From: Escherichia coli | Lineage (GTDB): Bacteria > Pseudomonadota > Gammaproteobacteria > Enterobacterales > Enterobacteriaceae | Direction: 5' to 3' (one strand) | Length of the DNA stretch: 64,000 bases | Assembly: GCA_009729775.1 (NCBI GenBank) | Contig: GCA_009729775.1_4081.1 | Part shown: positions 5,392 to 63,767 of the stretch, in pieces | How positions within the stretch are numbered: position 1 is the first letter of the stretch | How the letters are laid out: each line of letters opens with the position of its first letter | The notes under the pieces: generated by a model | What the model was told of the DNA's origin: nothing | Databases searched by the model: none | Seen by the model: only the letters and a program-made list of their open reading frames with translations | Made by a program: the position numbers and the translations under genes

Positions 5392-6816
5392 TTAACTACG
5401 TTGACGCTTTTTATCAGCTTCATATTCGTAGTGTACAGTCTCACCAAATGGTGCAACTTTATTTGGGTTACTGTGAATCACGAACAGTGTTTTACAGTAG
5501 TTTGGATCACCCCATGACTGCCACGGTTCACCATCAGTAAACATTACAAGCTGTTTAGGCTTGTAGTTGTCGTTCTTCATATGAACCCATACTGCTTCAA
5601 AGTCAGTACCACCACCACCTTTTACTGGATATTCCAGAATCTTACGTTCTTCGCCAGTTTTGTAATCCTTTACAGTATAAACTTCAGTATCAAAAGTCAT
5701 GATACGAATCTTAAACTGTTTGAATTGTTTAGTGATGCCAAGAACTTCACTAATGAAATCACGAAGCATATCTTCAGAAATAGACCCAGAAGCATCTAGT
5801 GCAATCGCAATATCAATATCATCATCTGGTTTCATCCCTGGGTAAATTGGATTACCATAGAATGAACCATTAGAACCAAAACCTGCACCCCAAGAACGAC
5901 GATTAGGATTTTGATATGTTGCATCAGACTTCAACCAACTACGAAGTGTACGTTGAAGTTTTGAACGCCAGTCAATCTTTGGTTCTTTAAAGTTGTTAAT
6001 CATACGAGCGATTTCTGCTGGTGTACCACCTGCACGAGCAGCATTCATCATTGCTGTTTTGAAATCATCCATGTAATCACGTTTTTGCTGTTCACTTGAA
6101 CCACCCTCTTGACCTTCTTGTGGAACGTCATGCTGGTCAATGGTAGTACCTTTTGGTTTACCCTTACCATCTTTAATATCGCCAAAAGTACCGCGATTTT
6201 TACCTTCACCTTCGCCACCACCACTTTGTGGTTGACCTTCACCTTCACCATCTTCTTTTTGTTCTTCTTCTTCAAGAAGAATGTAAATCTCTTCTGCGGT
6301 CATACCTTCATATTTTTTATCATACAACCATGAACTTTGGATTTTTCCAATTTTCTCACGAACGATGATTTGGTTAATGGCATAATCCGCTGCACGGTTA
6401 TAACGTTGTGGATCACGCATACCACGACGAAGGAAGTGATCGTAAGCACAGTGTAGAATTTCATGACAAATTACAGCAATAAGGTTTTCATCAGTCAAAC
6501 CTTCAGTCATTTCTTTTAATTGTTCGTCTGTAACTTCAGGATGCTTTTCACGAATAGCTTCTTCATATTCTTTCTTTTTAGATGGGTCTTGAATACCCAT
6601 TACAAATTCTACGTTGTAGAATAGATGTTTACCATCAACTGCTAGAGTACGACACCATGTATTATTAGCAACTGGACGTAAACGTGAAGCGAGTACACCA
6701 AAGAATGGTGCAGTTAACATCAAAGATGTACGAGCCAGAACCAGACGATCTTGACATTCTTTCTGGAGTGCCGGAGATACTTCATTGAATCTGGAAGTAG
6801 ATTTGTTATCTGACAT
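5392..6816 (-). CDS. VWA-domain protein with N-terminal HExxH metallopeptidase-like region
   Basis: 474 aa; HEILH motif; C-terminal MIDAS-like DASGS motif (IALDASGSISEDM); Gly/Glu-rich linker; partner of upstream AAA+ ATPase. Confidence 0.8.
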   Translation of the reverse strand: MSDNKSTSRFNEVSPALQKECQDRLVLARTSLMLTAPFFGVLASRLRPVANNTWCRTLAVDGKHLFYNVEFVMGIQDPSKKKEYEEAIREKHPEVTDEQLKEMTEGLTDENLIAVICHEILHCAYDHFLRRGMRDPQRYNRAADYAINQIIVREKIGKIQSSWLYDKKYEGMTAEEIYILLEEEEQKEDGEGEGQPQSGGGEGEGKNRGTFGDIKDGKGKPKGTTIDQHDVPQEGQEGGSSEQQKRDYMDDFKTAMMNAARAGGTPAEIARMINNFKEPKIDWRSKLQRTLRSWLKSDATYQNPNRRSWGAGFGSNGSFYGNPIYPGMKPDDDIDIAIALDASGSISEDMLRDFISEVLGITKQFKQFKIRIMTFDTEVYTVKDYKTGEERKILEYPVKGGGGTDFEAVWVHMKNDNYKPKQLVMFTDGEPWQSWGDPNYCKTLFVIHSNPNKVAPFGETVHYEYEADKKRQRS

Positions 6817-6890
6817 GTATATTTCCTCGTTTAGTTAAGATAAAAGAAGGATACCATTAGGCATCCTTCTTGTCAACAACTCTTTGTTAA

Positions 6891-8216
6891 TTAGCCAAGA
6901 GAGCGTGCTTTACGTACAAGTTCAGAGTACTTAGCGATGAAATCTTTAAACGCTGGTACATCTTTAATGGAAATCGCAACCTTATGAAGCGTGATGGTAC
7001 GAATTGCCAGTACTGCCAGTTCTGCTTGAGTTGCAGAGAAGTTATGGTCTAGGAAGGTGATGAAGTTGTTACACAGTTTACCCCATTCTTCCACTGGTAG
7101 ACGTTGTTCTTGCTTCTCATTGAACAGGTCGATAATTTTATAAACCAAGTTCAGAGTGATAAAGTAGTTCGCAGAAATATCCAGAGTTGCGTCGATTTCT
7201 TTGATTTCACCAGACAGAATAGACATAGTATCTGGTAGTTTAGCAACGTTCTCAACGTACTCAATGTATTCAGTTGCAACACCTTCACCAACACGACCAG
7301 CAATCATTGCACGGAACACTTCTTTATCAATTGTCTTAGTTTTCTTGAGATCTTCGTAGCGTGCTACTGCTTCCCATGAACGTGGAGAAGTACCACCGCT
7401 GTGAGAAGGATCTTGTGGACTAAGTGTGTTAAAGTACTTAGAACCAGTGTTGTTGATGAACGCAACAGTTGCTGGGTTCAAACGTTTTGCAATCGCATAA
7501 TCGTTAATCCAATCTTGATGGTAAGGAATCATCTCAATGTGAGTCATACGGTCACGCAGTGGTGTAGCAAGAGAGAAAGTTACACCGCCATCAGTTTCAC
7601 GGTTACCTGCTGCAAGAATCAGTGCAGTCTTAGGTAGCTTCATCTCACCAACACAACGGTCGAGGATTAGCTGATAAGACGCTGCCTGAACAATAGGCAT
7701 TGCAGAGTTAATTTCGTCAAACAGAATAACACCTTTCCAATCTTCGGACAATTTCAGAACTTTAGGTGCAGCCCATACTACCGCAGTTTCAGCTACATAA
7801 TCTTTTGCTTCGGCAAGCTCAGATTCTTTCAGAAGAGAACCGTCAGTTTTACGGAAAAGCTTCTCTGGTACTGGAATACCGCGAAGGTCACTTGGTTCGA
7901 TTTGAGACAAACGGAAATCGATAAAGTTAGTATCTTGGTCGATTAGTTTTGCTTCAAATGCAGCCAGTTCACGGCGTAGCTGATCAGCATTTTCAGGGTC
8001 AGCTTCGATTTGTTGTTTCATGAACTCGATTTTAGCTACGTTATCTTTACGCAGTGGGTAATTTTCATCAGCATATTGACGAGCGATAGCAGACTTACCG
8101 ATACCTGGGCTACCCCAAATCATCAGGCTATCTTGAATCATGTCAGCCAGTGCCATTGCTTCTTTAGCTTTCTTTGGAGTCAGTTTAACGTTCAGGATAT
8201 CGTTTTGAGTAGTCAT
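6891..8216 (-). CDS. AAA+ ATPase, MoxR/CobS-like
   Basis: 441 aa; Walker A GSPGIGKS, Walker B ILFDEIN; AAA+ sensor region; adjacent VWA partner. Confidence 0.8.
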   Translation of the reverse strand: MTTQNDILNVKLTPKKAKEAMALADMIQDSLMIWGSPGIGKSAIARQYADENYPLRKDNVAKIEFMKQQIEADPENADQLRRELAAFEAKLIDQDTNFIDFRLSQIEPSDLRGIPVPEKLFRKTDGSLLKESELAEAKDYVAETAVVWAAPKVLKLSEDWKGVILFDEINSAMPIVQAASYQLILDRCVGEMKLPKTALILAAGNRETDGGVTFSLATPLRDRMTHIEMIPYHQDWINDYAIAKRLNPATVAFINNTGSKYFNTLSPQDPSHSGGTSPRSWEAVARYEDLKKTKTIDKEVFRAMIAGRVGEGVATEYIEYVENVAKLPDTMSILSGEIKEIDATLDISANYFITLNLVYKIIDLFNEKQEQRLPVEEWGKLCNNFITFLDHNFSATQAELAVLAIRTITLHKVAISIKDVPAFKDFIAKYSELVRKARSLG

Positions 8217-24362: not shown

Positions 24363-25475
24363 TTAGAACATTTGTTTGATTGCTTCGTAACGAAGTTCAC
24401 AAACAAAATCACGAATTTCTGACGTTTCAAGTTCACCATCTTTGACCATTTGCTGAATATCAGGCAATTCAACATCAGTATAACGATCATAAACTTTAAT
24501 AATTAGATCTTCAAGTTCTAAATCAATTTCTTTTCGCAAAATGAAGTATTCCAAAACTTTATAAAGGAATTCTTCACCTCCGTTATTTTTAATATTCATA
24601 TCCAATAAAATATTACCCATTTCAATAGGGGTCTTTTTACGGAATGTTTTGATATCATCACGGAAACGTTTGATATAATTACTAAATTTAACATACTTAA
24701 CTGGAACTTTAATAGCACCGTTAAGTACTGAATCATTATTTACTTCTTCATTTTCAAGAAGAATAGACCACAGAAAATATGGTTTATATACATCCGTACA
24801 GTTCTCTGCAATATAATCAATAAGGTCTAAATTCTTTTTGGTCAAAGATGTATTAAACACCTTTTCGTAATAACCAAATTTACTTAGCGTCTTAAGGAAC
24901 TTTGCAGGCTTTTCTTCGGAAAATGCTTTTTCGAATTCCACAAAAACACGGTCAGGAACAAGATGATTTAGTTCACCACTATTGACCATTCCAATAGCGA
25001 GTTCCTCAGTGCTTTCATGGATAGTAAAGTCTGAATAACGAGTAGCAAATCGAGCAAGACGTAACACGCGTAATGGATCTTCTTTAAAATGGTCAGAAAC
25101 ATGACGTAGTATCTTGTTCTTGATATCAGCTTTACCACCGTATGGATCGATGTGAATTTGTAGTACTGGATCATACGCAATTGCATTAATTGTAAGGTCA
25201 CGGCGATACAAATCTTGTTCTAGTGTTACGCCTTTTGTATCCACTTCAAAGCCACCATATCCAGTACCAGTTTTACGCTCAGTACGGGCTAATGCGTGTT
25301 CATTACCTTCTGGACTTAGATATACTGGGAAATCCTTACCTACTTGCTTATAGCCAATACTTTGCAAGTACTTAAGATCAGATTCGGATGCACCAACAAT
25401 GACATAATCTTTGTCTTTTGCACGGATGCCCATTAAACGGTCACGGACGTAACCGCCAACCAAATACTTTTTCAT
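24363..25475 (-). CDS. CCA-adding tRNA nucleotidyltransferase / poly(A)-polymerase head-domain protein
   Basis: 370 aa; N-terminal LVGGYVRD...DKDY signature of class II CCA enzymes. Confidence 0.8.
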   Translation of the reverse strand: MKKYLVGGYVRDRLMGIRAKDKDYVIVGASESDLKYLQSIGYKQVGKDFPVYLSPEGNEHALARTERKTGTGYGGFEVDTKGVTLEQDLYRRDLTINAIAYDPVLQIHIDPYGGKADIKNKILRHVSDHFKEDPLRVLRLARFATRYSDFTIHESTEELAIGMVNSGELNHLVPDRVFVEFEKAFSEEKPAKFLKTLSKFGYYEKVFNTSLTKKNLDLIDYIAENCTDVYKPYFLWSILLENEEVNNDSVLNGAIKVPVKYVKFSNYIKRFRDDIKTFRKKTPIEMGNILLDMNIKNNGGEEFLYKVLEYFILRKEIDLELEDLIIKVYDRYTDVELPDIQQMVKDGELETSEIRDFVCELRYEAIKQMF

Positions 25476-25476
25476 G

Positions 25477-25599
25477 TTATTCCCCCATCAGCCAATCACG
25501 TAGACGTTCCCAGAAGCCTTTTGGTTGGTATTCTGGGTATTCATATTCATCTGTGCCTTGCTCGGAAACACCCCAATCTTCTTCTAACATAGCAATCAT
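25477..25599 (-). CDS. possible small ORF (40 aa), translationally coupled to CCA enzyme gene
   Basis: ATG at 25599 preceded by GGAGG 5 nt upstream; stop TAA abuts CCA gene ATG; below track cut-off. Confidence 0.4.
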   Translation of the reverse strand: MIAMLEEDWGVSEQGTDEYEYPEYQPKGFWERLRDWLMGE

Positions 25600-25610
25600 A
25601 ATGCCTCCAA

Positions 25611-26033
25611 TTAAATTAATCTATCACGTAGACGGTCGTAATATTTTTTGTGTATAGCTAGTATACACTGATATGCAGAATAGTCAATACCAAATGTATC
25701 ATCAATGAACATGTACTGATCAAGTGTTTCCGGTCCATTATCATCAACTGGTAATGTCCCTTCTTTTTTTGATAGTGTGTGCCACATCAACTCACTTTCA
25801 ATATGGTGAGTTGCGTATGTCAATTCTATCTTACTTTTTCGTAGTAAAATTAACAATTCATCATTGTCGTCGAGTGCATTACGAAATTTAATACGAACTG
25901 TACCCTGGAAATTATTAGTGTACATAACACGATGATGATTGTATGAAATCAAACCACGTCTTTCAGTACTGATTTCGTGTTCAGCAAAGTACTTTAACGT
26001 TTCATTAAATTTTGGAATTTTAGTAACGTCCAA
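25611..26033 (-). CDS. hypothetical protein (140 aa), paralog of next gene
   Basis: Shares IDDTFGIDYSAYQ block with 26020..26436 (IEDTFGIDFDTYQ). Confidence 0.5.
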   Translation of the reverse strand: MDVTKIPKFNETLKYFAEHEISTERRGLISYNHHRVMYTNNFQGTVRIKFRNALDDNDELLILLRKSKIELTYATHHIESELMWHTLSKKEGTLPVDDNGPETLDQYMFIDDTFGIDYSAYQCILAIHKKYYDRLRDRLI

Positions 26034-26436
26034 TCACATAATCCTCATAAAGTTCGTATACCCTCATTATACTCTGATATGTATCAAAGTCAATACCAAA
26101 GGTATCCTCAATGAACTGATATTGCAAAAACTCTTCCTCTGTAGCAGCAATAGGAAGAGTCCCGTTTCGTTGTTCTGTGGATTGAACATCCTCAATATAC
26201 ATCAACACTATACCTTCATCCAGATTTATATCTATCATAAAAACATCTTCACTATAAAATATGTTATATGTACGGATGAAGAGATTTCCTGTTCTATCAT
26301 AACTTGACACGTGTGTTTCATAATACATTTTATCTAAACTAAAGAACAAACCTGTACTATCTGGCTTTTTAGTATTTTTTAATTTAATTTCGATAGCATC
26401 AATAATAGGTTTAATATCAAATTTTTTCATAGACAA
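26020..26436 (-). CDS. hypothetical protein (138 aa), paralog of previous gene
   Basis: Paralog relationship as above. Confidence 0.5.
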   Translation of the reverse strand: MSMKKFDIKPIIDAIEIKLKNTKKPDSTGLFFSLDKMYYETHVSSYDRTGNLFIRTYNIFYSEDVFMIDINLDEGIVLMYIEDVQSTEQRNGTLPIAATEEEFLQYQFIEDTFGIDFDTYQSIMRVYELYEDYVIGRY

Positions 26437-26612
26437 ATCTCATATCGATTAGTGTTTGGATCATAGCAATAATTATCATTAACTTTAACACCAGGTTTAA
26501 GTGTTATTGTTGTTCCTACTTCAGTACTGGATTCCGCATCACAGTAAATCATCACACCAACTCCTGCGAGTAAGGCTACGATACATACAATTACACCAAT
26601 GGTATATTCCAT
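26427..26612 (-). CDS. small membrane protein (61 aa)
   Basis: One hydrophobic segment VIVCIVALLAGVGVMIY. Confidence 0.4.
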   Translation of the reverse strand: MEYTIGVIVCIVALLAGVGVMIYCDAESSTEVGTTITLKPGVKVNDNYCYDPNTNRYEICL

Positions 26613-26625
26613 TTCAATTCCTCGG

Positions 26626-27021
26626 TTATAAAAAGTAATTATACAGTTTATTGTACAATATAAAAAGGTCTTTCACATTATCATAAGTAATATCAGATAC
26701 ATCATGAATTAATGATAACTGAAAAAATGAAGCTTCGTCTATTTCTGCTGGAATTATAACATCACCATCGTCTTCGTCCATTTTATTAGTGTAGTATTTT
26801 ATGTGATCTACATTCAACTCAATAGAGAACGCAATGTTGGTTTTTGTATAATCTTCAATTAATCCAATATATTGAGATTTTTCATTAATAAAAAATCCAA
26901 TCCCAACACAACGGTTATCTGGATATGGATAGTACCATCTATTAATAACTAGGTGTTCAGGTAAGTCCATATCATGTGTTGATATTATAGATTTTACAAT
27001 TTCCATCCAGGAATAATTCAT
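26626..27021 (-). CDS. hypothetical protein (131 aa)
   Basis: ORF in track. Confidence 0.5.
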   Translation of the reverse strand: MNYSWMEIVKSIISTHDMDLPEHLVINRWYYPYPDNRCVGIGFFINEKSQYIGLIEDYTKTNIAFSIELNVDHIKYYTNKMDEDDGDVIIPAEIDEASFFQLSLIHDVSDITYDNVKDLFILYNKLYNYFL

Positions 27022-27074
27022 AATTAAAACTCCATAAGAAAAGGGACAGAATTAATCTGTCCCTTTAGTATATA

Positions 27075-27407
27075 TTACTCTTCGTTTTCTGTCAAATCAT
27101 CAAGAACTGGGTGTTCTGGATGGTTTCGGCGGTGTAATTTAATGCTTTTGTCTTTACTGAATACAGTTTCCATTTTTTCAAATGAATCACCAATTGCTTT
27201 GTATAAATCTGCTGCATCGGCAGTAACTGATTTACTACCTGATGTTAGAGTCACAGAGTATTGAGACTTATGCTCTTTCTTCACATGAACTTCAATATCC
27301 ATTACAGTTGAAGTACGGAACTTTTCAAGACATTTAGCACCATCGTAAATTGCATCTTGAATTGCTGTAGTAAAATCAACATTACCTTGAATATTTAATT
27401 TTAGCAT
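27075..27407 (-). CDS. ribosome hibernation factor homolog (HPF/RaiA/YfiA family)
   Basis: 110 aa; aligns by eye along full length with E. coli HPF/RaiA as recalled (LNIxGN..TxAI..KLE...TL...A.A..D.Y.AI....K.E..L.K.K). Confidence 0.7.
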   Translation of the reverse strand: MLKLNIQGNVDFTTAIQDAIYDGAKCLEKFRTSTVMDIEVHVKKEHKSQYSVTLTSGSKSVTADAADLYKAIGDSFEKMETVFSKDKSIKLHRRNHPEHPVLDDLTENEE

Positions 27408-27423
27408 AATTTACCTACCTTTT

Positions 27424-28383
27424 TTAGAGTGAACTTAACAACAAATCTGCTCGGTTTGTAACTTGACGATACCATAAGGAATTCATTATTTCTTTTTTAA
27501 ATTTCTTAGGGTTATCATTTTTTACACTGTTCCAAAGTTTATTAAACGAAGCTAACTTATCTACTCCCATTGTATAGCACATTTCAAAAAGAATACGTTG
27601 TTGTTCTTTGGTCAGATTTACTGCTTGTTTTTTCTGCATCAATAATAAAAAGTCATCATATGTTCTTTTCATATCTTGCATTAAAAGTTTGTTGGCTTGA
27701 GCTTTGGTAATACCGTTTCTGTACTTGATAGCATCAGATTCTTTTCTTCCCAAATAATGCCCATAACCGATTGTATAATTACCTTTCATATCCTTGTAAG
27801 GATGAAATTTAGAATTGTGGAAAGGAACTCCGACTTTCCCACCAAGTAAACGGCGTTTGTTCTTGGACTGAAATTCAATTGAACCTTCAGCTTCTTTGAT
27901 GTGATTGACAATTTCTGGATCATTATAATCAAACTGTACAGTCACATCTGGTAACAATACGTTCTTCAAATCCTCTTTTGTTGGGATAAAGATACCCTGA
28001 GAAGTATGAAGAGTAGCATTTAAATTGATATTTTTCAACAAAATAACATACTCTTCAAGTTGTACATTTTTAGGTTTAAACTTTTTAGCAATAGAATAAT
28101 AACTATCACCAGGTTGAACCGTATAATGCTTCTCGCCGCGTGGAACATCCTTTGATATTTCTACCTTTGGTAATTCCTGCTTTTGAATTTGCGTAACTTG
28201 TGGTTTTAAATTGTGTACCTGACTTTCGTCCGATGATGATACACGATCATTTTGAGAAAAACCATAAAATCCAATCGCAGCGACAAGTACTGTGCAAACT
28301 AGAACACCATAAGTAGTCTTAGTTTTCAGTGCTTTTTTCGCTTGTTTCAAAACGCCTCCTTTGTTGATTGTTAAGATGGGCAA
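27424..28383 (-). CDS. membrane-anchored LysM + T4-lysozyme-like (GH24) protein, endolysin candidate
   Basis: 319 aa; N-terminal hydrophobic segment; LysM (HYTVQPGDSYYSIAKKF); C-terminal GNYTIGYGH...lysozyme-like region resembling T4 e. Confidence 0.7.
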   Translation of the reverse strand: MPILTINKGGVLKQAKKALKTKTTYGVLVCTVLVAAIGFYGFSQNDRVSSSDESQVHNLKPQVTQIQKQELPKVEISKDVPRGEKHYTVQPGDSYYSIAKKFKPKNVQLEEYVILLKNINLNATLHTSQGIFIPTKEDLKNVLLPDVTVQFDYNDPEIVNHIKEAEGSIEFQSKNKRRLLGGKVGVPFHNSKFHPYKDMKGNYTIGYGHYLGRKESDAIKYRNGITKAQANKLLMQDMKRTYDDFLLLMQKKQAVNLTKEQQRILFEMCYTMGVDKLASFNKLWNSVKNDNPKKFKKEIMNSLWYRQVTNRADLLLSSL

Positions 28384-28518
28384 TCACAAAGATGGCAAAG
28401 AGGCCATTTGCAAAAGCCTCATCGGACTTTCTACAGTACAAAAACGTTCTTTTCAAATGTTTAAGTAGTATAGCATATTTTTATTTTATTACAAGACATA
28501 TTTACTGTAAAAACCACA

Positions 28519-28929
28519 TTAATCGTAGTAGGTTCTACCTACAGTTATGTGATATTTAAAGTACTTGGTTGGTAGTCCTAGTTCATTTCTAATATGTGTG
28601 ATGAAATCATCTTCAAATTCAATGATAAAGAATGAACCTGGATTCTTTTTATCTTTTACTATCTCAATACAAGGATTGAACTTTATCTTTACTTTCATTC
28701 CATCGTATTTTTTCCAGAACTCTTCATGTGGTGGTACTTCACCACGCACTATACTAACATGTGCTCCCCATTGAGGATCTTTAACGTCAATATGTAAATC
28801 AGTTCTGATGAAGTACTGGTAGTATCTAACCAACTGTAATGGAAGTTGCAGTACTAACCAGAAGTCCTTCTTCTTTTTCATAGTGCCACGGTCTGGATCA
28901 TACACCAGAGTTCCTTCCATTTCAATCAT
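28519..28929 (-). CDS. 2H phosphoesterase-superfamily protein (LigT-like)
   Basis: 136 aa; two H-x-[ST]-x motifs (AHVSIV and YHITVG) about 72 residues apart. Confidence 0.5.
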   Translation of the reverse strand: MIEMEGTLVYDPDRGTMKKKKDFWLVLQLPLQLVRYYQYFIRTDLHIDVKDPQWGAHVSIVRGEVPPHEEFWKKYDGMKVKIKFNPCIEIVKDKKNPGSFFIIEFEDDFITHIRNELGLPTKYFKYHITVGRTYYD

Positions 28930-41248: not shown

Positions 41249-42481
41249 TTACTTATACCATTGCATTTCTCTGATATCAATGATAATTTTTGATGCTAAT
41301 TTAATGTTTGGTTTTTTGGGAAGTACTGATTTCTTATATAGAACATCACGAATGTATTGTACTTTATCATCGAAATATTCTAATACTTCTTCATACTTCC
41401 ACTTACCATTACGAATATCCATCAACATTTGTGCATCAGGTCGTTTAACTTGAATAATTCCACTCTGTAATGCTTCTTCTGCACTATTCAAAAGTCTAAT
41501 TGTGTGCATAGCATGTTTGCAATCGAATCCGTGTTGTGATTCTAAAATAGCACGTTTGGCATTACGATTTTCTTTCCATTTATGATAACTTTTCCTATTC
41601 TCACTATTTTCCTGATATTCTTTTTCGTTAAATTTTACAATTAGTTCTGGTTTGGTTTTCAACTCTTCAGTACTACGCTCTTTAGAAAAATAACGCAATG
41701 AACCATCACCATTGATAGTACTTTCATTCGGATTTTTAATAATCGCAAAAATGTTTTCTCCGTAATGAATTAGTTCATAGCCATTATTAAAATTCAATAA
41801 ATTGAAATCACGATCTAGAATTTTATCAGTAGTGTAGTTATGCACTAATCTTACAAAATGATATTGCTTTAATGGATTTTTCGAAACTAACTGCAATGAC
41901 GTATCACGCATATATTTTTCAAAATCAATCTTTTTAGCATTAAATGGATGTAAGTTCGATGTATCTAAACGTTCAACAAGATATTGTGGAAATGAATCAT
42001 ACATCCACGCAAGAACCTCATCGACTGGGTGTTCTTCTAAAATCTCATTTAATCGTTTTTCAGCAATACGCTCTTTATCCATCCAACCGTGATGATTTGT
42101 CATACGCTTAATCTGATTATATGCATATCCAGTGTATGAAAATGCAATCTTGGAACTAAGAAGTTTTTGGTTAAATGAACGAAGATAGTCATAAATTTCA
42201 GTACTTTCAACAATGTGTTCAGGTTCAACCCAAAGTGATTCAAGAATATTAGGGTTAGCTTCAGTGTATAATTTTAAATACTGATTCAACTCATAGAATT
42301 TAGTATCTTCTTCGCTTTTATCAGCTACCTCTTTGACCTTATAGAAGGGTGTAAGAATAAATTCTTTATTAGCAAGAAAAATACCACGATAATCAGTATC
42401 ACTTTCAGGTGTACTGGTTCCGTAGGCTTGTGACCCAGCCAAGTGTTTCACTATTGTTTGTTCAATATATTGGTTATTCAT
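41249..42481 (-). CDS. Pol-beta-superfamily nucleotidyltransferase (410 aa)
   Basis: N-terminal GSQAYGTSTPESDTDYRG fits G-S-x(9-13)-D-x-D nucleotidyltransferase signature; rest unassigned. Confidence 0.6.
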   Translation of the reverse strand: MNNQYIEQTIVKHLAGSQAYGTSTPESDTDYRGIFLANKEFILTPFYKVKEVADKSEEDTKFYELNQYLKLYTEANPNILESLWVEPEHIVESTEIYDYLRSFNQKLLSSKIAFSYTGYAYNQIKRMTNHHGWMDKERIAEKRLNEILEEHPVDEVLAWMYDSFPQYLVERLDTSNLHPFNAKKIDFEKYMRDTSLQLVSKNPLKQYHFVRLVHNYTTDKILDRDFNLLNFNNGYELIHYGENIFAIIKNPNESTINGDGSLRYFSKERSTEELKTKPELIVKFNEKEYQENSENRKSYHKWKENRNAKRAILESQHGFDCKHAMHTIRLLNSAEEALQSGIIQVKRPDAQMLMDIRNGKWKYEEVLEYFDDKVQYIRDVLYKKSVLPKKPNIKLASKIIIDIREMQWYK

Positions 42482-42879
42482 AGATAAATTGTTAACTCCT
42501 TTAAGAAACCATTATAATAACGATTAAAGTCATGTTCTAATGTTTTATAATCATCAAAACTAAAACCTAAATTGATAATTGTATCTTCTTGAAAGAAAGT
42601 TTCTTCATTCATACATTCAATAGGTTCGTAATTAATTCCACCTTTGAAAACTTTTGTAAAAAACATTCCATCATTATTAATTTCAACATACATAAAATTA
42701 TTTTCTGGATCACGAGGACAGACGATATTCAGTGAACTATTTCCACTTGTATTGTACTCATAAGAAATTATATCAAAAGAATCAATACCATAACACTTAG
42801 ATTTTTCTTTATCGCCAAATACTTTTCTATCTGTACTCATATTGCGTATAGTGCTATAGATATCATCAACTGTAGTCAT
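42478..42879 (-). CDS. hypothetical protein (133 aa)
   Basis: ORF in track; 4-nt overlap with NTase gene. Confidence 0.45.
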   Translation of the reverse strand: MTTVDDIYSTIRNMSTDRKVFGDKEKSKCYGIDSFDIISYEYNTSGNSSLNIVCPRDPENNFMYVEINNDGMFFTKVFKGGINYEPIECMNEETFFQEDTIINLGFSFDDYKTLEHDFNRYYNGFLKELTIYL

Positions 42880-42881
42880 AG

Positions 42882-43391
42882 TTAACCACCATACTTTGAC
42901 TTGTATGTTTCAAGTGATAAAGATATACGATTTTGCTTTTTAATTCTTTCATCAATATCCTTTGAATTCTTCACACTTCGGTATACGTCAGCTAATAAAT
43001 TATAATCTTCTTTATTTGAGCTATGCTGTGTCCAACCTATGTCTGTTTTAATACGAACACTTGCTTTATTTGACGAGTAAAAGAAACTGAAACCATTTGA
43101 CCCATCAAAAATATCAAAAGTATCTACCCAATCACCATAAGGAAAACTCATTGGGACTGACTCGTGGTCGATTGTGATATCCGATAAATTTTTTGAACAG
43201 TACTTCGCAAAGTGATAAACGATTGGATCACATTTTGATAATTCGTATTTGTATTCAATGATAGTTTTTCTATTAGCATCATTGATAGCATATTCTTTTA
43301 TCAATGGACTTTTTTTGATGATAAGAGTCCATAGAAACGATTCTAATCCGGTTTCATCAACTTTTTGTTTCTTTTTGAAAAATGAAATCAT
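42882..43391 (-). CDS. small-protein paralog family member 3 (169 aa)
   Basis: Shares block xxD(N/D)DR(K/R)xxI(E/D)xKYxLSK with 43388..43909 and 43916..44482. Confidence 0.5.
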   Translation of the reverse strand: MISFFKKKQKVDETGLESFLWTLIIKKSPLIKEYAINDANRKTIIEYKYELSKCDPIVYHFAKYCSKNLSDITIDHESVPMSFPYGDWVDTFDIFDGSNGFSFFYSSNKASVRIKTDIGWTQHSSNKEDYNLLADVYRSVKNSKDIDERIKKQNRISLSLETYKSKYGG

Positions 43392-43909
43392 TTATATAAA
43401 CCCTTAATTTTCTGTCTATTATGTATATCATTTTGCTGGATTTTCAATTTAGTAAGGTTGTTTCTTACACCTTCAACTCCACGCATTATTTGTAACATAA
43501 TTAGTGATTCGTCATATGTTAGTACATTGCTATTATTATCGATATATACTTTCACTCCACTTTCAAGATAATCATTTTCTTTGGAGTTAAAGTTTCTAAT
43601 AACAAACTTAACGCCATTTGATGTATCACTGAAAACATATCGTTCCGCACCGTAGAATGTTTTTCCACGAAATAAACCGCCGTCTTCCCACTTCCAACGA
43701 CTAGATTCATAATCATTAACGTAATCAATGATTAAAGAAAGTAAAGGATGTTTGCTCAATTTATATTTTGCATCTAACAGGATACGTCTATCATTATCTG
43801 TGGTAATAATATCCTTTAGTGAGTAGCTTTTAGATATAATTTTAAAGATAATTTCATGCCAAATTAAAGTACTGTTTTGTTTTCCAACTGATCCAAAAAA
43901 CATATCCAT
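43388..43909 (-). CDS. small-protein paralog family member 2 (173 aa)
   Basis: Paralog block TDNDRRILLDAKYKLSK; SxRWKWEDGG. Confidence 0.5.
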   Translation of the reverse strand: MDMFFGSVGKQNSTLIWHEIIFKIISKSYSLKDIITTDNDRRILLDAKYKLSKHPLLSLIIDYVNDYESSRWKWEDGGLFRGKTFYGAERYVFSDTSNGVKFVIRNFNSKENDYLESGVKVYIDNNSNVLTYDESLIMLQIMRGVEGVRNNLTKLKIQQNDIHNRQKIKGLYK

Positions 43910-43915
43910 TCCTCA

Positions 43916-44482
43916 TTAGTATAAATCAGTAATGTCTTTGTATGCATTAATCTGTTTTTGTTGTAATGAAAGTTCATTGAGTTTAGTTACCATTTTATCT
44001 ACACCAACACGTGTATAGAAAATAATAAATGAATCTAAATTGCCTAGAGTAATTCTTGAACTGAAATTTGAAAGTTTTCTTGCATAAACATAAATTTCTT
44101 CTTCACTTGGTAAACGTTTCTCAATCGGCCAGCTTTCCACACCATTCGGCTCATAATCGATTTCAAATTCAACTCCCATCACTGTGTCTTGAATGCGATC
44201 CGTATATGAACCACCGTAAAAATACTCTCTTGGTTTGGATCTCCAACGAGGACTAAATGGGTCAGTTGCGTATTCTTTTACAAATTTGTAAAAGGACATT
44301 TTACTGAGCATATACTTCATCTCAATTAGTGCTTTGCGGTCATCATCAGTTTTAAACTCTGCTTTTAGCGATGGACTTTTACACAGTAACTTAACTAAAT
44401 TGTTGTACATCTTTAATGTACGTTGTTCTTTCATTTCTTTGATTTTGTGACGTTTTGGTGGTGGTAATAAAGATTTGACCAT
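43916..44482 (-). CDS. small-protein paralog family member 1 (188 aa)
   Basis: Paralog block TDDDRKALIEMKYMLSK; SPRWRSKPRE; AGGAGG SD. Confidence 0.5.
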   Translation of the reverse strand: MVKSLLPPPKRHKIKEMKEQRTLKMYNNLVKLLCKSPSLKAEFKTDDDRKALIEMKYMLSKMSFYKFVKEYATDPFSPRWRSKPREYFYGGSYTDRIQDTVMGVEFEIDYEPNGVESWPIEKRLPSEEEIYVYARKLSNFSSRITLGNLDSFIIFYTRVGVDKMVTKLNELSLQQKQINAYKDITDLY

Positions 44483-60331: not shown

Positions 60332-61771
60332 TTACATATTTTCTTCAGCAAATTCAGCCAGTGGTGAACGAACAACACCTTCTAGTTCGATGACACGACA
60401 ACCTGCCCAGTCTTTAAACTTCTCAGTTACATATGTCAAACCACTGTTAACAGGACTAATAAACTTACTGTCAATCTGACTCAAGTTACCCATAATTACT
60501 ACTTTACAGTTTAACCCTGCTCGTGTCAAGATGGTTTTTGCTTGTGCAGGTGTAATGTTTTGGAATTCATCAACTACTAGAATAGTGTTGGTGAATGAAC
60601 GTCCACGTACAAAGTTTAGTGCTTTAAATTGAATAACATTACGTTTCATAATCTCTTCAATACTACCTTGTGGATTGGCATCATCTTTATGAAGAAACTC
60701 TAACGCATCAATCGCGGCTCCACAGAATGGAATCACTTTTTCTGCTTCTGAACCTGGCAAGAAACCAATATCTTCAAACTGTGAGTCTTGAGTTTTAGAG
60801 AAGATGATTCGGTCGTATTTACGTTTTTCCAGTACTAATTCTAATGCAGTAGCAATTGTAATTAGTGTTTTACCAGTACCAGCAGAACCTAGCAGTACTG
60901 TTAGATGTACATCAGGATCGAGAATACTGTTGATGGCGAGTGCTTGTTGGATATTCTTTGCTTTAATATCCCATACTTTAGCACGTAAAGCCACTGATTG
61001 TCCAATGTCTTGGAATACCAAAATATCTTCTGGTGTTAGTGTTCCATCATCTTCCTCAATTGCTGATTGTCCTTCGTACACAAATAATACGTCAGCATCA
61101 TCATATAGATAATCACCGATGCATAGATTTTGTGGAAGCAGATGTTCAATCAAGCTTTTAGAAATGTAATGATACAAACGACGACCAACTTGTTCGGATT
61201 GAATATTAGTATTGGTTAAGTTGCTGTATACTTCCCAAAAATTGATTTCCAGATGGTGTTGACCAATGTGAATCAAATCACTATCACCAATAACAATATC
61301 ATGGCGATAATCTTGTACCTCGACACCATAACTTAGTGCTTTGATACGCATGTTGATATCACGAGTTACCAGTACTGATTCTGTTGCTAAAGCTACCAGA
61401 ATGATTTTATCATCAGGTACAGTACTTTTGAGAAGGGTTTGAACTTTCTCTTCTGTACCTTTAGTACGAATTAGTGCCTCAGCTTCTTCGTTTGTAATAA
61501 CAAACAATTTGCTATCAGGATTCATATTGGTATGAACATCAGCAATATTAACACCAGTACTACTAATCTCGTCATGTGATGCATCTGCAATAATTGCTTC
61601 AATGTTACGAATAGCAACACGAGCATCGCGTGAAACATCTACATTACGACTCTTAATCGAATCTAATTCTTCCAGTACTGTAAATGGTAGAATGATTGCA
61701 GCACCATCAAAAGCAATAGATGCATTAGGGTCAGATAGTAGTACGTTTGTGTCAATTGTATATTTTTTCAT
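60332..61771 (-). CDS. phoH: PhoH-like ATPase with N-terminal PIN domain
   Basis: 479 aa; PIN-like N-terminus (YTIDTNVLL); Walker A LLGSAGTGKTL; Walker B VVDEFQN. Confidence 0.85.
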   Translation of the reverse strand: MKKYTIDTNVLLSDPNASIAFDGAAIILPFTVLEELDSIKSRNVDVSRDARVAIRNIEAIIADASHDEISSTGVNIADVHTNMNPDSKLFVITNEEAEALIRTKGTEEKVQTLLKSTVPDDKIILVALATESVLVTRDINMRIKALSYGVEVQDYRHDIVIGDSDLIHIGQHHLEINFWEVYSNLTNTNIQSEQVGRRLYHYISKSLIEHLLPQNLCIGDYLYDDADVLFVYEGQSAIEEDDGTLTPEDILVFQDIGQSVALRAKVWDIKAKNIQQALAINSILDPDVHLTVLLGSAGTGKTLITIATALELVLEKRKYDRIIFSKTQDSQFEDIGFLPGSEAEKVIPFCGAAIDALEFLHKDDANPQGSIEEIMKRNVIQFKALNFVRGRSFTNTILVVDEFQNITPAQAKTILTRAGLNCKVVIMGNLSQIDSKFISPVNSGLTYVTEKFKDWAGCRVIELEGVVRSPLAEFAEENM

Positions 61772-61831
61772 AAAACATCCTTGAGTTATGAGTACATCCT
61801 TGTACTCGACTAATGTTATTGACTCGGATTA

Positions 61832-62134
61832 TTACATATTTGGTTCGTATTCAACATAGCAACGTGAACCTCGAACCTTTTCTTCCCAGCACTCCTGGTA
61901 AACAAGTTGACCAATTGAAACTGGTTCTCTTGATAGTCCATTACGTACTTCACCACTTTGGGTTTTATACATGAATGAACATTTGGACTCGCTACATTGT
62001 CCTAAACTAACAACTTCTGCGGTATTGTAGTGAATGTTGGTACGCTTAGTGTTCTCGTGATACTGTCCGAACCAAAGAACTCCTGCACCTAACAGAACAG
62101 TACAAATAAGACTTTTGATGTGTGTTTGAATCAT
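61832..62134 (-). CDS. secreted/membrane Cys-containing protein (100 aa)
   Basis: N-terminal hydrophobic segment; six Cys. Confidence 0.45.
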   Translation of the reverse strand: MIQTHIKSLICTVLLGAGVLWFGQYHENTKRTNIHYNTAEVVSLGQCSESKCSFMYKTQSGEVRNGLSREPVSIGQLVYQECWEEKVRGSRCYVEYEPNM

Positions 62135-62451
62135 AATGCGTTAAATCCATTGTTTAAGTATGTTTCAATATTAATTTTACCAACAGGATTACTACTGTGA
62201 ACAAAGTACTCAAACGGTTCTTTAATATTATTATCAAACATATAATCAATAAGAAACTTAGCAAAAGAATATCCAGTCTTTTCGTCTTCGCTCACATCAC
62301 CCAAGTCATGGTCGAATGATACAAATGCTGGAATTCCATTTTCAATAACATATTCACATGCACTTTTAAAGTCACGACATACCACCATATCTTGGTTTGG
62401 ATAATATAGATTTGCATCACGAATATCATCCAAAAACATTGCGTAAGACAT
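62131..62451 (-). CDS. hypothetical protein (106 aa)
   Basis: ORF in track; 4-nt overlap with neighbour. Confidence 0.45.
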   Translation of the reverse strand: MSYAMFLDDIRDANLYYPNQDMVVCRDFKSACEYVIENGIPAFVSFDHDLGDVSEDEKTGYSFAKFLIDYMFDNNIKEPFEYFVHSSNPVGKINIETYLNNGFNAL

Positions 62452-62460
62452 GTTAAACTC

Positions 62461-63012
62461 CTATAGATAACTAATTAGTAAGTTTTCTTTTTGAATCAGA
62501 TACTCCAATTCTTGTTTTGCTGTACCGATGAAGTTCTGTGTCATAAGATTATTATATCCCGCTTCTCGATTTTGTCCCTTAGAATAACGAGAAATATGAC
62601 ATAAATTTACACCAGCAACTTCAGCACTCGCATGTTTAGCATTAGTGTATCCATCTCTAATGTGTTTCAACTCGTCATAGCTTACTTCATAGCTAAAACT
62701 ATGACTGTTTGCACCTGGGTAAATTTCAAAAGTTTTGAGTGGTCGAAGATGGGAAACAAAAATATTGTAATCCATTTCTTCTTGAACTTCACGACGCAAC
62801 GCATCTTCTAGTGAGATATCAGTACTTTCAACTGTTCCACCACATCCTCCTAGAAGTCCATCCCAACGTAATTGTAGTAATACCAGATTTACTTCTGGTA
62901 TATCATTTAACTCATAGTTTTTGTAAGGGTTGCATTTTCTTGCAAAGAAATAGCAAAATACAAAATTTGCACGTGAGCCATATTCACCAAAGGGAACTTC
63001 TTTAACACTCAT
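62461..63012 (-). CDS. Nudix-like hydrolase (divergent Nudix box)
   Basis: 183 aa; GGCGGTVE...RREVQEEMD approximates the Nudix box with a 3-residue insertion. Confidence 0.5.
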   Translation of the reverse strand: MSVKEVPFGEYGSRANFVFCYFFARKCNPYKNYELNDIPEVNLVLLQLRWDGLLGGCGGTVESTDISLEDALRREVQEEMDYNIFVSHLRPLKTFEIYPGANSHSFSYEVSYDELKHIRDGYTNAKHASAEVAGVNLCHISRYSKGQNREAGYNNLMTQNFIGTAKQELEYLIQKENLLISYL

Positions 63013-63767
63013 TTCATACGTTCCTTAATTATAGTCTCTAGATGTGGTATTGCTTTGGTTGCTGGCTTGATAACTTTTTCATTAAACAAAAAATCATTAT
63101 CATTTTTACGAATGTTAACATTAACACTATAACATGGTAATGCTGCTGCTAATCTCGACCATACCAGTACTGTATCGCTACTACCAATTACAATAACTGT
63201 ATCATTTTCATTAAGAGATTTCAACACATTATTTCGTTCTTCGTAAATTGGTAAGCGTATACCATCAACATAACGATGATATTCTCCAATCATTACTACA
63301 TTTGGTTTAGCAAAAACATCATGTTTTGGTATGTATGGTTCGTATCCGCAGTTAATAACATTATAATCATCAGAATTGATACTATAATTTTCAATAACTT
63401 CACACAAGTTTCCATGAAGTTTAAGCTCATGACCACCAATACGAGTATAAAGATCGTCCATGTTAGAAGTCATATGAAGGAAGCAATCACCATATTGATC
63501 TTCTAACGATTTTATAAAATAATGCATTGCATTTGGTTCGCATTGTCCCAATTTTACACGTAATGTATTATAGAAAGAATGAACAACATGATATTTTGTA
63601 GTTAAACTAGCAATGTTACATACATCATTAATTTTAAATGTATCCCACAAACCATCATCAAATCGAAAAGGTTCCATCCCACTTTCAACGGAAAGTCCTG
63701 CACCTGATATAATCAGTAATCGTTTTTTACCTTCATTGCTTATAAATTTTTCTGATATCATATTCAA
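63009..63767 (-). CDS. short Sir2-like (sirtuin-family) protein
   Basis: 252 aa; GAGLSVESGMEPFR, LHGN, VVMIGE and VIGSS blocks in sirtuin order; zinc-ribbon Cys pairs not evident. Confidence 0.6.
   Translation of the reverse strand: MNMISEKFISNEGKKRLLIISGAGLSVESGMEPFRFDDGLWDTFKINDVCNIASLTTKYHVVHSFYNTLRVKLGQCEPNAMHYFIKSLEDQYGDCFLHMTSNMDDLYTRIGGHELKLHGNLCEVIENYSINSDDYNVINCGYEPYIPKHDVFAKPNVVMIGEYHRYVDGIRLPIYEERNNVLKSLNENDTVIVIGSSDTVLVWSRLAAALPCYSVNVNIRKNDNDFLFNEKVIKPATKAIPHLETIIKERMK

Follow-up and report, generated by a model that had tools for sequence, protein, structure and literature searches.

Why does a jumbo coliphage encode a CCA-adding enzyme, a 2H phosphoesterase and a homolog of the ribosome-binding protein HPF within a few kilobases, and do the three make up one RNA-repair module? 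The question is raised by positions 24363-28929 of a 64-kb window (that is, the whole stretch of DNA analyzed), in which 24363 is the lowest coordinate of the CCA open reading frame (ORF) and 28929 the highest of the 2H ORF. A sequence-only reading of the window had placed the three genes within about 4.5 kb of phage DNA and suggested that they could jointly restore tRNA ends damaged by host nucleases while reprogramming ribosomes. Pfam searches and alignments confirmed the presence and the identities of all three genes in about 4.5-4.6 kb. On balance, the stretch is probably the central part of a conserved block that services the translation apparatus in Rak2-like jumbo phages, and not a self-contained three-gene machine.

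The window derives from an Asteriusvirus jumbo coliphage. The stretch is 98.8% identical to Escherichia phage 121Q, in which it corresponds to genes 531-539; with about 30 further members of the genus, jumbo coliphages whose genomes measure 350-380 kb, it shares 85-97% identity. The whole window should correspond to roughly 218.5-282.5 kb of 121Q, reverse-complemented, and every gene discussed here that lies in the window is on its minus strand (Table 1).

Table 1. Features of the window, ordered by position (aa, amino acids)
Feature	Coordinates	Strand	Remarks
Divergent PTH2-like protein, 125 aa	21829..22206	minus	Last block gene before the neck gene
Macro-domain protein, 158 aa	22547..23023	minus	Poa1p / TARG1 / DarG-like class; phrog_335; position kept in Rak2-like phages
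Glutaredoxin-like protein, 82 aa	23603..23851	minus	PF00462, 34.6 bits; position conserved
Nudix hydrolase, 133 aa	23853..24254	minus	PF00293, 48.5 bits; directly downstream of CCA in all relatives examined
Class II tRNA nucleotidyltransferase, CCA-adding type, 370 aa	24363..25475	minus	No HD domain
Three tandem paralogs (131, 138 and 140 aa) and a 61-aa ORF	25611..27021	minus	HPF-CCA slot; phrog_36582, phrog_20693 (twice)
Terminator-like hairpin	27040..27066	minus	Directly after the HPF stop codon; AAAGGGACAGA-ttaat-TCTGTCCCTTT, then TCTTAT; consensus match only
Short HPF/RaiA-family protein, 110 aa	27075..27407	minus	Acidic C-terminal extension
LysM + phage-lysozyme protein, 319 aa	27424..28383	minus	Between 2H and HPF; Phage_lysozyme 45.3 bits, LysM 24.4 bits
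Stand-alone 2H phosphoesterase, 136 aa	28519..28929	minus	2H-SAK family; 121Q gp531, annotated 'hypothetical protein'
RlaP-family nucleotidyltransferase	41249-42481	minus	PF10127, 59.5 bits
PIN-PhoH protein	60332-61771	minus
100-aa ORF		minus	Between PIN-PhoH and cREC in the listed gene order
cREC (cyclic-phosphate-processing receiver)	62131-62451	minus
Nudt16-like Nudix	62461-63012	minus
Sir2	63009-63767	minus

A CCA-adding-type enzyme without an HD domain

The CCA tRNA nucleotidyltransferase named by the sequence-only reading is present and belongs to class II. Pfam recognized both the PolyA_pol head (PF01743, 68.8 bits) and the PolyA_pol_RNAbd neck (33.2 bits), residues 1-207 are 51% identical to E. 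coli Cca, and all class II motifs are kept. In motif A (GGYVRDRLMG...KDKDYV), G7, G8, R11, D12 and D23 are invariant and D21 nearly so (alignment A3), while R91, R92 and D93 of motif B, E132, D133, P134 and R136 of motif D, and R176 and E180 of motif E are invariant in 26 homologs. The sequences RRD (motif B), EDxxR (motif D, which serves as protein template for C and A) and ERxxxE (motif E) align with their counterparts in E. coli Cca, and the helical neck, body and tail with which class II enzymes hold the tRNA are present; class II relatives include the enzymes of T. maritima (3h37) and B. stearothermophilus (1miv). Among NCBIfam models, the CCA model scored highest (273.8 bits, versus 92.9 for PcnB and 61.7 for the A-adding model), with all three below their own cut-offs, and a fold search did not discriminate among CCA-, A-, CC-only or poly(A) specificity.

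The C-terminal half of the protein differs from that of its bacterial counterpart. Compared with E. coli Cca (PRK10885), the last 160 residues show no sequence similarity and no HD phosphohydrolase domain: the PRK10885 match covers only positions 1-207 of 409, Pfam found no HD domain (PF01966) in the phage enzyme where E. coli Cca has one at 229-328 (54.1 bits), and residues 208-370 contain no HD dipeptide. HD-bearing bacterial enzymes align to the N-terminal half only, and the full-length homologs are all HD-less phage proteins of about 370 aa. We therefore rejected the labels 'multifunctional CCA protein' and 'phosphatase', carried by several database records, as over-annotation. The HD domain of E. 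coli Cca is said, in work from 2004 attributed to Yakunin et al., to have 2',3'-cyclic phosphodiesterase, 2'-nucleotidase and phosphatase activities; the nearby stand-alone 2H enzyme could replace this lost function.

Candidate substrates for CCA addition are encoded by the phage itself. No tRNA genes were found within the 64-kb window, the phage tRNA cluster being located elsewhere in the genome (121Q 72.6-78.0 kb, L045 22682-27969; in phage Sharanji, L034 9712-13954). Three of the seven 121Q tRNA genes, those for Gly, Ser(act) and Thr, lack an encoded CCA and have CAA after the discriminator base, and the other four, for Ser(tga), Leu, Met and Asn, encode it. In Sharanji, four of seven lack it, Asn included, and CAA again follows the discriminator base in each of them except Asn, which has CAT. 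The two clusters differ further in a Leu(taa) gene of 121Q whose place is taken by Arg(tct) in Sharanji, in the length of tRNA-Met (75 nt in 121Q, 90 nt in Sharanji) and in the Asn gene, which encodes CCA only in 121Q.

A compact 2H phosphoesterase conserved across distant phages

The second call, a compact 2H phosphoesterase, had been made from two HxS/T motifs, which are weak evidence by themselves because they may occur by chance in a protein of 136 aa. In an alignment of 27 sequences reaching down to 34% identity, however, H57, H127 and T129 of the motifs H57-V-S59 and H127-I-T129 proved invariant and S59 nearly invariant. R62, G63, G131 and R132 are also invariant, so that each motif is followed by a fixed arginine (HxSxxR and HxTxxR). 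The Pfam 2H-SAK model (PF22547) scored 26.0 bits on the protein, just under its cut-off of 27 and over residues 87-136 only; the same family is precomputed on 25 of the 28 homologs found. Together with the bilobed alpha/beta 2H fold, which the protein shows, the retained motif residues and the family assignments of the homologs bear the call out. Across the annotated GenBank records examined, the gene is always 'hypothetical', save for one spurious 'viral L protein' label.

With other members of the 2H superfamily (2H-SAK PF22547, LigT/ThpR and the CPD domain of fungal tRNA ligase), the protein has in common the two invariant HxS/T motifs, the 2H fold and neighborhoods in which RNA ligase, kinase, Thg1 and TROVE genes abound. 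Its 136 aa make it far shorter than LigT (about 170-185 aa), and it is a separate gene, whereas the 2H unit of multidomain 'Swiss Army Knife' proteins is a domain. In fold, it resembles phage Acb1 and coronavirus ns2; searches with the single sequence and with the family profile did not place it in the Acb1 sequence family. A literature search on the '2H-SAK' or 'Swiss Army Knife' family returned nothing. Profile searching of 1.84 billion representatives collected 1,162 family members at E <= 0.001, most of them stand-alone proteins of 130-170 aa. When ten longer members were scanned, one had a recognizable extra domain: P0034, a fusion of 2H and YqeY. YqeY is a tRNA-binding module related to the tail of GatB.

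Many relatives, the Vibrio phage among them, encode a 170-aa protein whose gene begins 8 nt within the 2H gene (L025, 10407-10919; L006, about 0.8 kb downstream of 2H). The 8-nt overlap suggests translational coupling. The window has no such gene after 2H and carries 135 nt of non-coding DNA there instead.

As most syntenic loci come from one phage clade, we sampled the 2H family more widely and inspected 11 independent contexts (L037, L038, L039, L040, L041, L042, L043, L044, Atu_ph07, phage G and the Vibrio phage). In eight of the 11, one or more tRNA or RNA-repair genes lay no farther than 8 kb from 2H. A CCA-type enzyme and a T4-type Rnl1 lie near it in L038, and a CCA-type enzyme, RlaP, Rnl1, a kinase and a metallophosphoesterase in L039. 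Thg1, a CPD-like gene, a kinase and TROVE are found in L043, TROVE, Thg1 and an RNA ligase in L044, and PTH2 and a PARP-type gene in L041. A YqeY-like gene adjoins 2H in Atu_ph07, which also has a macro gene within about 5 kb. In Vibrio phage 2.275.O, whose 2H protein is 35% identical, the order is 2H, HPF-like gene and CCA, beside tRNA genes. Clade descent alone fails to explain this recurrence near CCA-type enzymes, RNA ligases, Thg1 and TROVE outside the Rak2-like clade, or the YqeY fusion. The neighborhoods are good associative evidence that the 2H family acts on tRNA or RNA ends, and they support a link between 2H and CCA specifically, with no universal link to HPF.

An HPF homolog with a RaiA-like acidic tail

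The third protein is HPF-like, as had been read. Pfam Ribosomal_S30AE (PF02482) covers residues 5-87 with 37.4 bits, above the cut-off of 23.7, and matches to solved HPF chains in the PDB are weak but specific (E. coli HPF on the ribosome, 4v8h, E 8e-4). Identity to E. coli HPF and RaiA is only 24-27%, and the scores stay below equivalog level (TIGR00741, 30 bits versus 40.9; PRK10470, 18.3 versus 125). Judged by these comparisons, the protein is a divergent family member and not an ortholog of E. coli hpf or raiA.

Beyond the S30AE core, a tail of about 15-20 residues ends in TENEE. E. coli RaiA ends in EEVEEE, while the 95-aa E. coli HPF lacks this extension (alignment A2). An acidic C-terminal cluster like that of RaiA is present in all four phage HPF homologs aligned, and the protein has the features of the RaiA subtype, that is, a short form with a tail and without the dimerization domain of long HPF. 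The tail of E. coli RaiA is understood to keep RMF from binding and 100S particles from forming. From the acidic tail common to the phage homologs and RaiA, a RaiA-like anti-dimerization role appears most likely for the phage protein.

Phage HPF homologs were cataloged by Mizuno et al. in 2019, including a 111-aa protein of GAP32 (AFC21633) and one of phage rV5, and the authors speculated along similar anti-dimerization lines (PMC6375957). An S30AE domain of about 90 residues is common to the window protein, these homologs and E. coli RaiA (YfiA)/short HPF. The GAP32 gene at the same block position (L020) is probably the listed 111-aa homolog and an ortholog of the window gene. According to a 2026 review, RMF increases in the course of DRT2 defense, which gives the anti-dimerization idea a context. 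To follow HPF across loci, we replaced tblastn, which was too insensitive, by a local HMM search; this recovered the homolog from the majority of Rak2-like loci and, between the 2H and CCA genes, from Vibrio phage 2.275.O.

Layout and extent of the block

Synteny was assessed with a tblastn matrix over 26 loci and with annotated records. The order 2H, lysozyme, (HPF), CCA, Nudix, glutaredoxin, (YqeY), macro, PTH2-like and neck is kept in Asteriusvirus, Eneladusvirus (Serratia phage BF), Alcyoneusvirus K64-1, GAP32, CBB, fHe-Yen9-04 and metagenomic relatives, and it persists down to 48% identity of the 2H protein. The linkage of 2H and CCA extends to all Rak2-like loci long enough for both, to Vibrio phage 2.275.O and to contigs L038 and L039, whereas linkage of HPF to either gene is confined to most Rak2-like loci and the Vibrio phage.

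Since Nudix, glutaredoxin, macro and PTH2-like genes follow CCA, the interval 24363-28929 cuts a larger block in two. In the PDB, the macro-domain protein matched BT1257 (E 1e-15) and the yeast ADP-ribose 1''-phosphate phosphatase Poa1p (6lfu, E 3e-6); it also matches DarG weakly. The last ORF of the block had no direct Pfam hit; it is 31% identical (E 1e-19) to the same-position protein of the metagenomic relative L025, which carries PF01981. It probably represents a highly diverged peptidyl-tRNA hydrolase 2 overlooked by annotation pipelines. Upstream of 2H, at a distance of 1.3-5.4 kb, genes for a PHA02142-type RNA ligase and a DUF2828 RNA-binding protein occur in most Rak2-like relatives (L004, L010-L030), and one Rak2-like clade adds a HAD hydrolase and a PRTase (PRTase_3). 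Asteriusvirus, to which the window belongs, and Alcyoneusvirus K64-1 lack the whole ligase/DUF2828 segment.

The lysozyme gene between 2H and HPF occupies a constant position in all Rak2-like loci examined. Its product belongs to phrog_15410, matches tail-lysozyme and endolysin families and probably stands outside any RNA function. The longest ORF starts at TTG, whereas the start annotated in 121Q lies further into the gene (927 nt). The slot between HPF and CCA holds three tandem paralogs, two of which overlap by 14 nt, and two further small ORFs. The paralogs have no Pfam hit; they share a C-terminal motif, QYxFIxDxFxIxYDxY, which is also found in K64-1 gp035 (alignment A4). The slot varies among genera: K64-1 has one copy of the paralog, and other genera yielded no detectable homologs of the three there. 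Promoter-like hexamers occur in intergenic gaps of 135 nt and 108 nt. Elsewhere in the window, GC content reaches 0.41 at 6001-8000 compared with about 0.33 in the remainder; by position, this segment should fall among virion structural genes near 274-276 kb of 121Q.

A dispersed repair kit in the same genome

Reading the complete 121Q annotation and searching the genome with tblastn yielded a single 2H and a single CCA gene, together with a T4 Rnl1-type ligase at 201.8-202.9 kb and a polynucleotide kinase (Pnkp) at 204.0-205.0 kb. The idea of a phage without an RNA ligase was rejected on the strength of these last two annotated genes at about 202-205 kb. No KptA/Tpt1, Thg1, TROVE/DUF2828 or YqeY gene was detected in the 121Q genome by tblastn, and the PHA02142-type ligase was found neither in Escherichia jumbo phages nor in the window. 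The cluster at 60332-63767 (Table 1) matches the sirtuin-centered RNA-repair neighborhood of Iyer et al. 2022 (PMC9503650).

Compared with the T4 Pnkp and Rnl1 pathway and with the jumbo-phage systems of Iyer et al., 121Q thus has Rnl1, Pnkp, RlaP, Sir2-Nudix-cREC-PIN/PhoH, CCA and 2H, but its parts are scattered and the flanking ligase and DUF2828 of sister genera are missing. From these positions, the RNA-repair capacity is real but dispersed. The window RlaP gene adjoins four genes without a Pfam or NCBIfam match (42478-44482) and tail-fiber genes; no RNA ligase adjoins it, though RlaP is named for that association. An IF3 homolog, 121Q gp47 (L032 33944-34447), lies far from the block.

Discussion

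From gene identities and a gene order that were directly observed, we infer the following activities and substrates. The CCA enzyme, a complete head-neck-body-tail class II protein that would have descended from a gammaproteobacterial-type Cca after loss of the HD domain, most likely adds CCA (or CA) to the CCA-less phage tRNAs and rebuilds trimmed 3' ends of any tRNA. The 2H enzyme most likely hydrolyzes the 2',3'-cyclic phosphate tRNA ends left by metal-independent defense nucleases, and its product would feed either the CCA enzyme, when damage is at the 3' end, or the distant Rnl1 and Pnkp, when the anticodon loop is broken. The HPF homolog most likely sits in the decoding site of the 30S subunit like E. 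coli RaiA, where its acidic tail may block RMF-driven 100S formation, so that ribosomes would stay recoverable. Published proposals agree with RNA-repair and tRNA roles (PMC7824862, PMC9503650, PMC3622015).

Several observations weigh against this account. Repair of anticodon-loop breaks requires the ligase and the kinase, both of which are encoded about 50 kb from the block, beyond the window, and the 2H enzyme may be redundant because a T4-type Pnkp already heals cyclic phosphate ends. Neither the single sequence nor the family profile detected a relative of the 2H family with a solved structure or measured activity, and the best structural neighbors of the protein include degraders of immune signals, namely Acb1, MHV ns2 and a poxvirus cGAMP phosphodiesterase. 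Near the 2H gene, L042 has only an adjoining Nudix gene, phage G (L008) only a macro gene within about 5 kb, and L040 no relevant gene, neither macro nor Nudix. By local HMM search, K64-1 lacks HPF, and none was detected in four further Rak2-like loci. The sole experiment with a phage HPF, that of rV5, did not recover the protein on ribosomes (PMC6375957). Seven ORFs, the lysozyme and the three paralogs among them, are interleaved with 2H, HPF and CCA, a hairpin follows HPF, and the promoter and terminator scan found promoter-like sites no more commonly than in shuffled sequence. Common descent rather than selection could account for much of the synteny, as most loci represent one phage clade. 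Finally, finishing the phage tRNAs that lack an encoded CCA is likely a simpler job for the CCA enzyme. The three-gene module of the sequence-only reading therefore survives in part: the co-localization of 2H and CCA is conserved, while the interleaved genes, the hairpin, the variable HPF and the downstream extension of the block speak against a closed unit. Repair of tRNA ends fares similarly, backed by 2H and CCA neighborhoods in related and unrelated phages and by the 2H-YqeY fusion, and weakened by the remote ligase and kinase and the simpler maturation role. The suggested reprogramming of ribosomes finds no backing in the rV5 result.

That simpler role leads to the most credible of the alternatives, which we nonetheless consider unlikely as a full account: CCA would finish the phage's own tRNAs, and 2H and HPF would be unrelated neighbors by descent, with no repair pathway linking them. 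The CCA-less tRNA genes of 121Q and Sharanji, the interleaved lysozyme and variable genes, the hairpin and the patchy occurrence of HPF all fit it, and the authors of the RaK2 study, who also discussed polynucleotide kinase and RNA ligase, proposed tRNA maturation for the CCA enzyme in 2013 (PMC3622015). Such neighbors by descent do not account for the recurrence of 2H beside RNA-end genes outside the Rak2-like clade, nor for its fusion to YqeY. Phage T4 genetics, moreover, showed that host Cca can mature CCA-less phage tRNAs, so that maturation alone does not require a phage copy of the enzyme. A more elaborate scheme, to which we give somewhat less credence, is a split Cca: 2H would open 2',3'-cyclic phosphates on tRNA 3' ends clipped by host defense or toxin nucleases and the HD-less CCA enzyme would rebuild them, making host Cca dispensable, while the RaiA-like HPF would serve as an anti-hibernation factor whose tail blocks RMF-driven ribosome dimerization, reported as a dormancy response in DRT2 defense.

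Slightly more doubtful again is that the block clears ADP-ribose, with 2H opening ADP-ribose 1'',2''-cyclic phosphate, the macro protein removing the phosphate and Nudix splitting ADP-ribose to AMP, either mimicking the eukaryotic disposal of a tRNA-splicing by-product or removing NAD-derived immune signals. The three genes lie within 6 kb of one another in all Rak2-like loci, the macro genes of Atu_ph07 and phage G, the Nudix of L042 and the PARP-type gene of L041 are found close to 2H, the macro protein resembles Poa1p, which is an ADP-ribose 1''-phosphatase, and the Sir2-Nudix-cREC cluster of the window has been proposed to be KptA-like (PMC9503650). Against it, the 121Q genome lacks KptA/Tpt1, searches did not resolve the substrate class of the Nudix protein, and the YqeY fusion and the RNA ligase, Thg1 and CCA links point to tRNA as the substrate. 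Clearance of ADP-ribose is compatible with the servicing block that we prefer and may represent an additional or alternative substrate of 2H. Degradation of cyclic oligonucleotide immune signals (from CBASS or similar systems), as by T4 Acb1 and with no role in tRNA metabolism, would suit the structural neighbors of 2H and is very improbable: neither single-sequence nor profile searches found similarity to Acb1, tRNA and RNA-repair genes dominate the neighborhoods, and Pfam places the protein in the RNA-repair 2H-SAK family.

These are known genes in a known phage, read correctly, and the RNA-repair idea is already published: CCA-adding and 2H enzymes were discussed as parts of jumbo-phage RNA repair by Iyer et al. 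in 2021 and 2022 (PMC7824862, PMC9503650), and the CCA and S30EA genes appear among the translation factors in the Sharanji paper. Our additions are incremental. They comprise the loss of the HD domain in the phage CCA lineage, the CCA-less phage tRNA genes, the 2H-YqeY fusion, the RaiA-like HPF tail, the true extent of the block to the Nudix, glutaredoxin, macro and PTH2-like genes, and the loss of the ligase/DUF2828 segment in Asteriusvirus. With its roughly 1,160 cluster representatives, the 2H-SAK family would reasonably merit biochemical study. If the proposed roles hold, the block would show how a giant phage keeps tRNAs and ribosomes usable during host translation shutdown.

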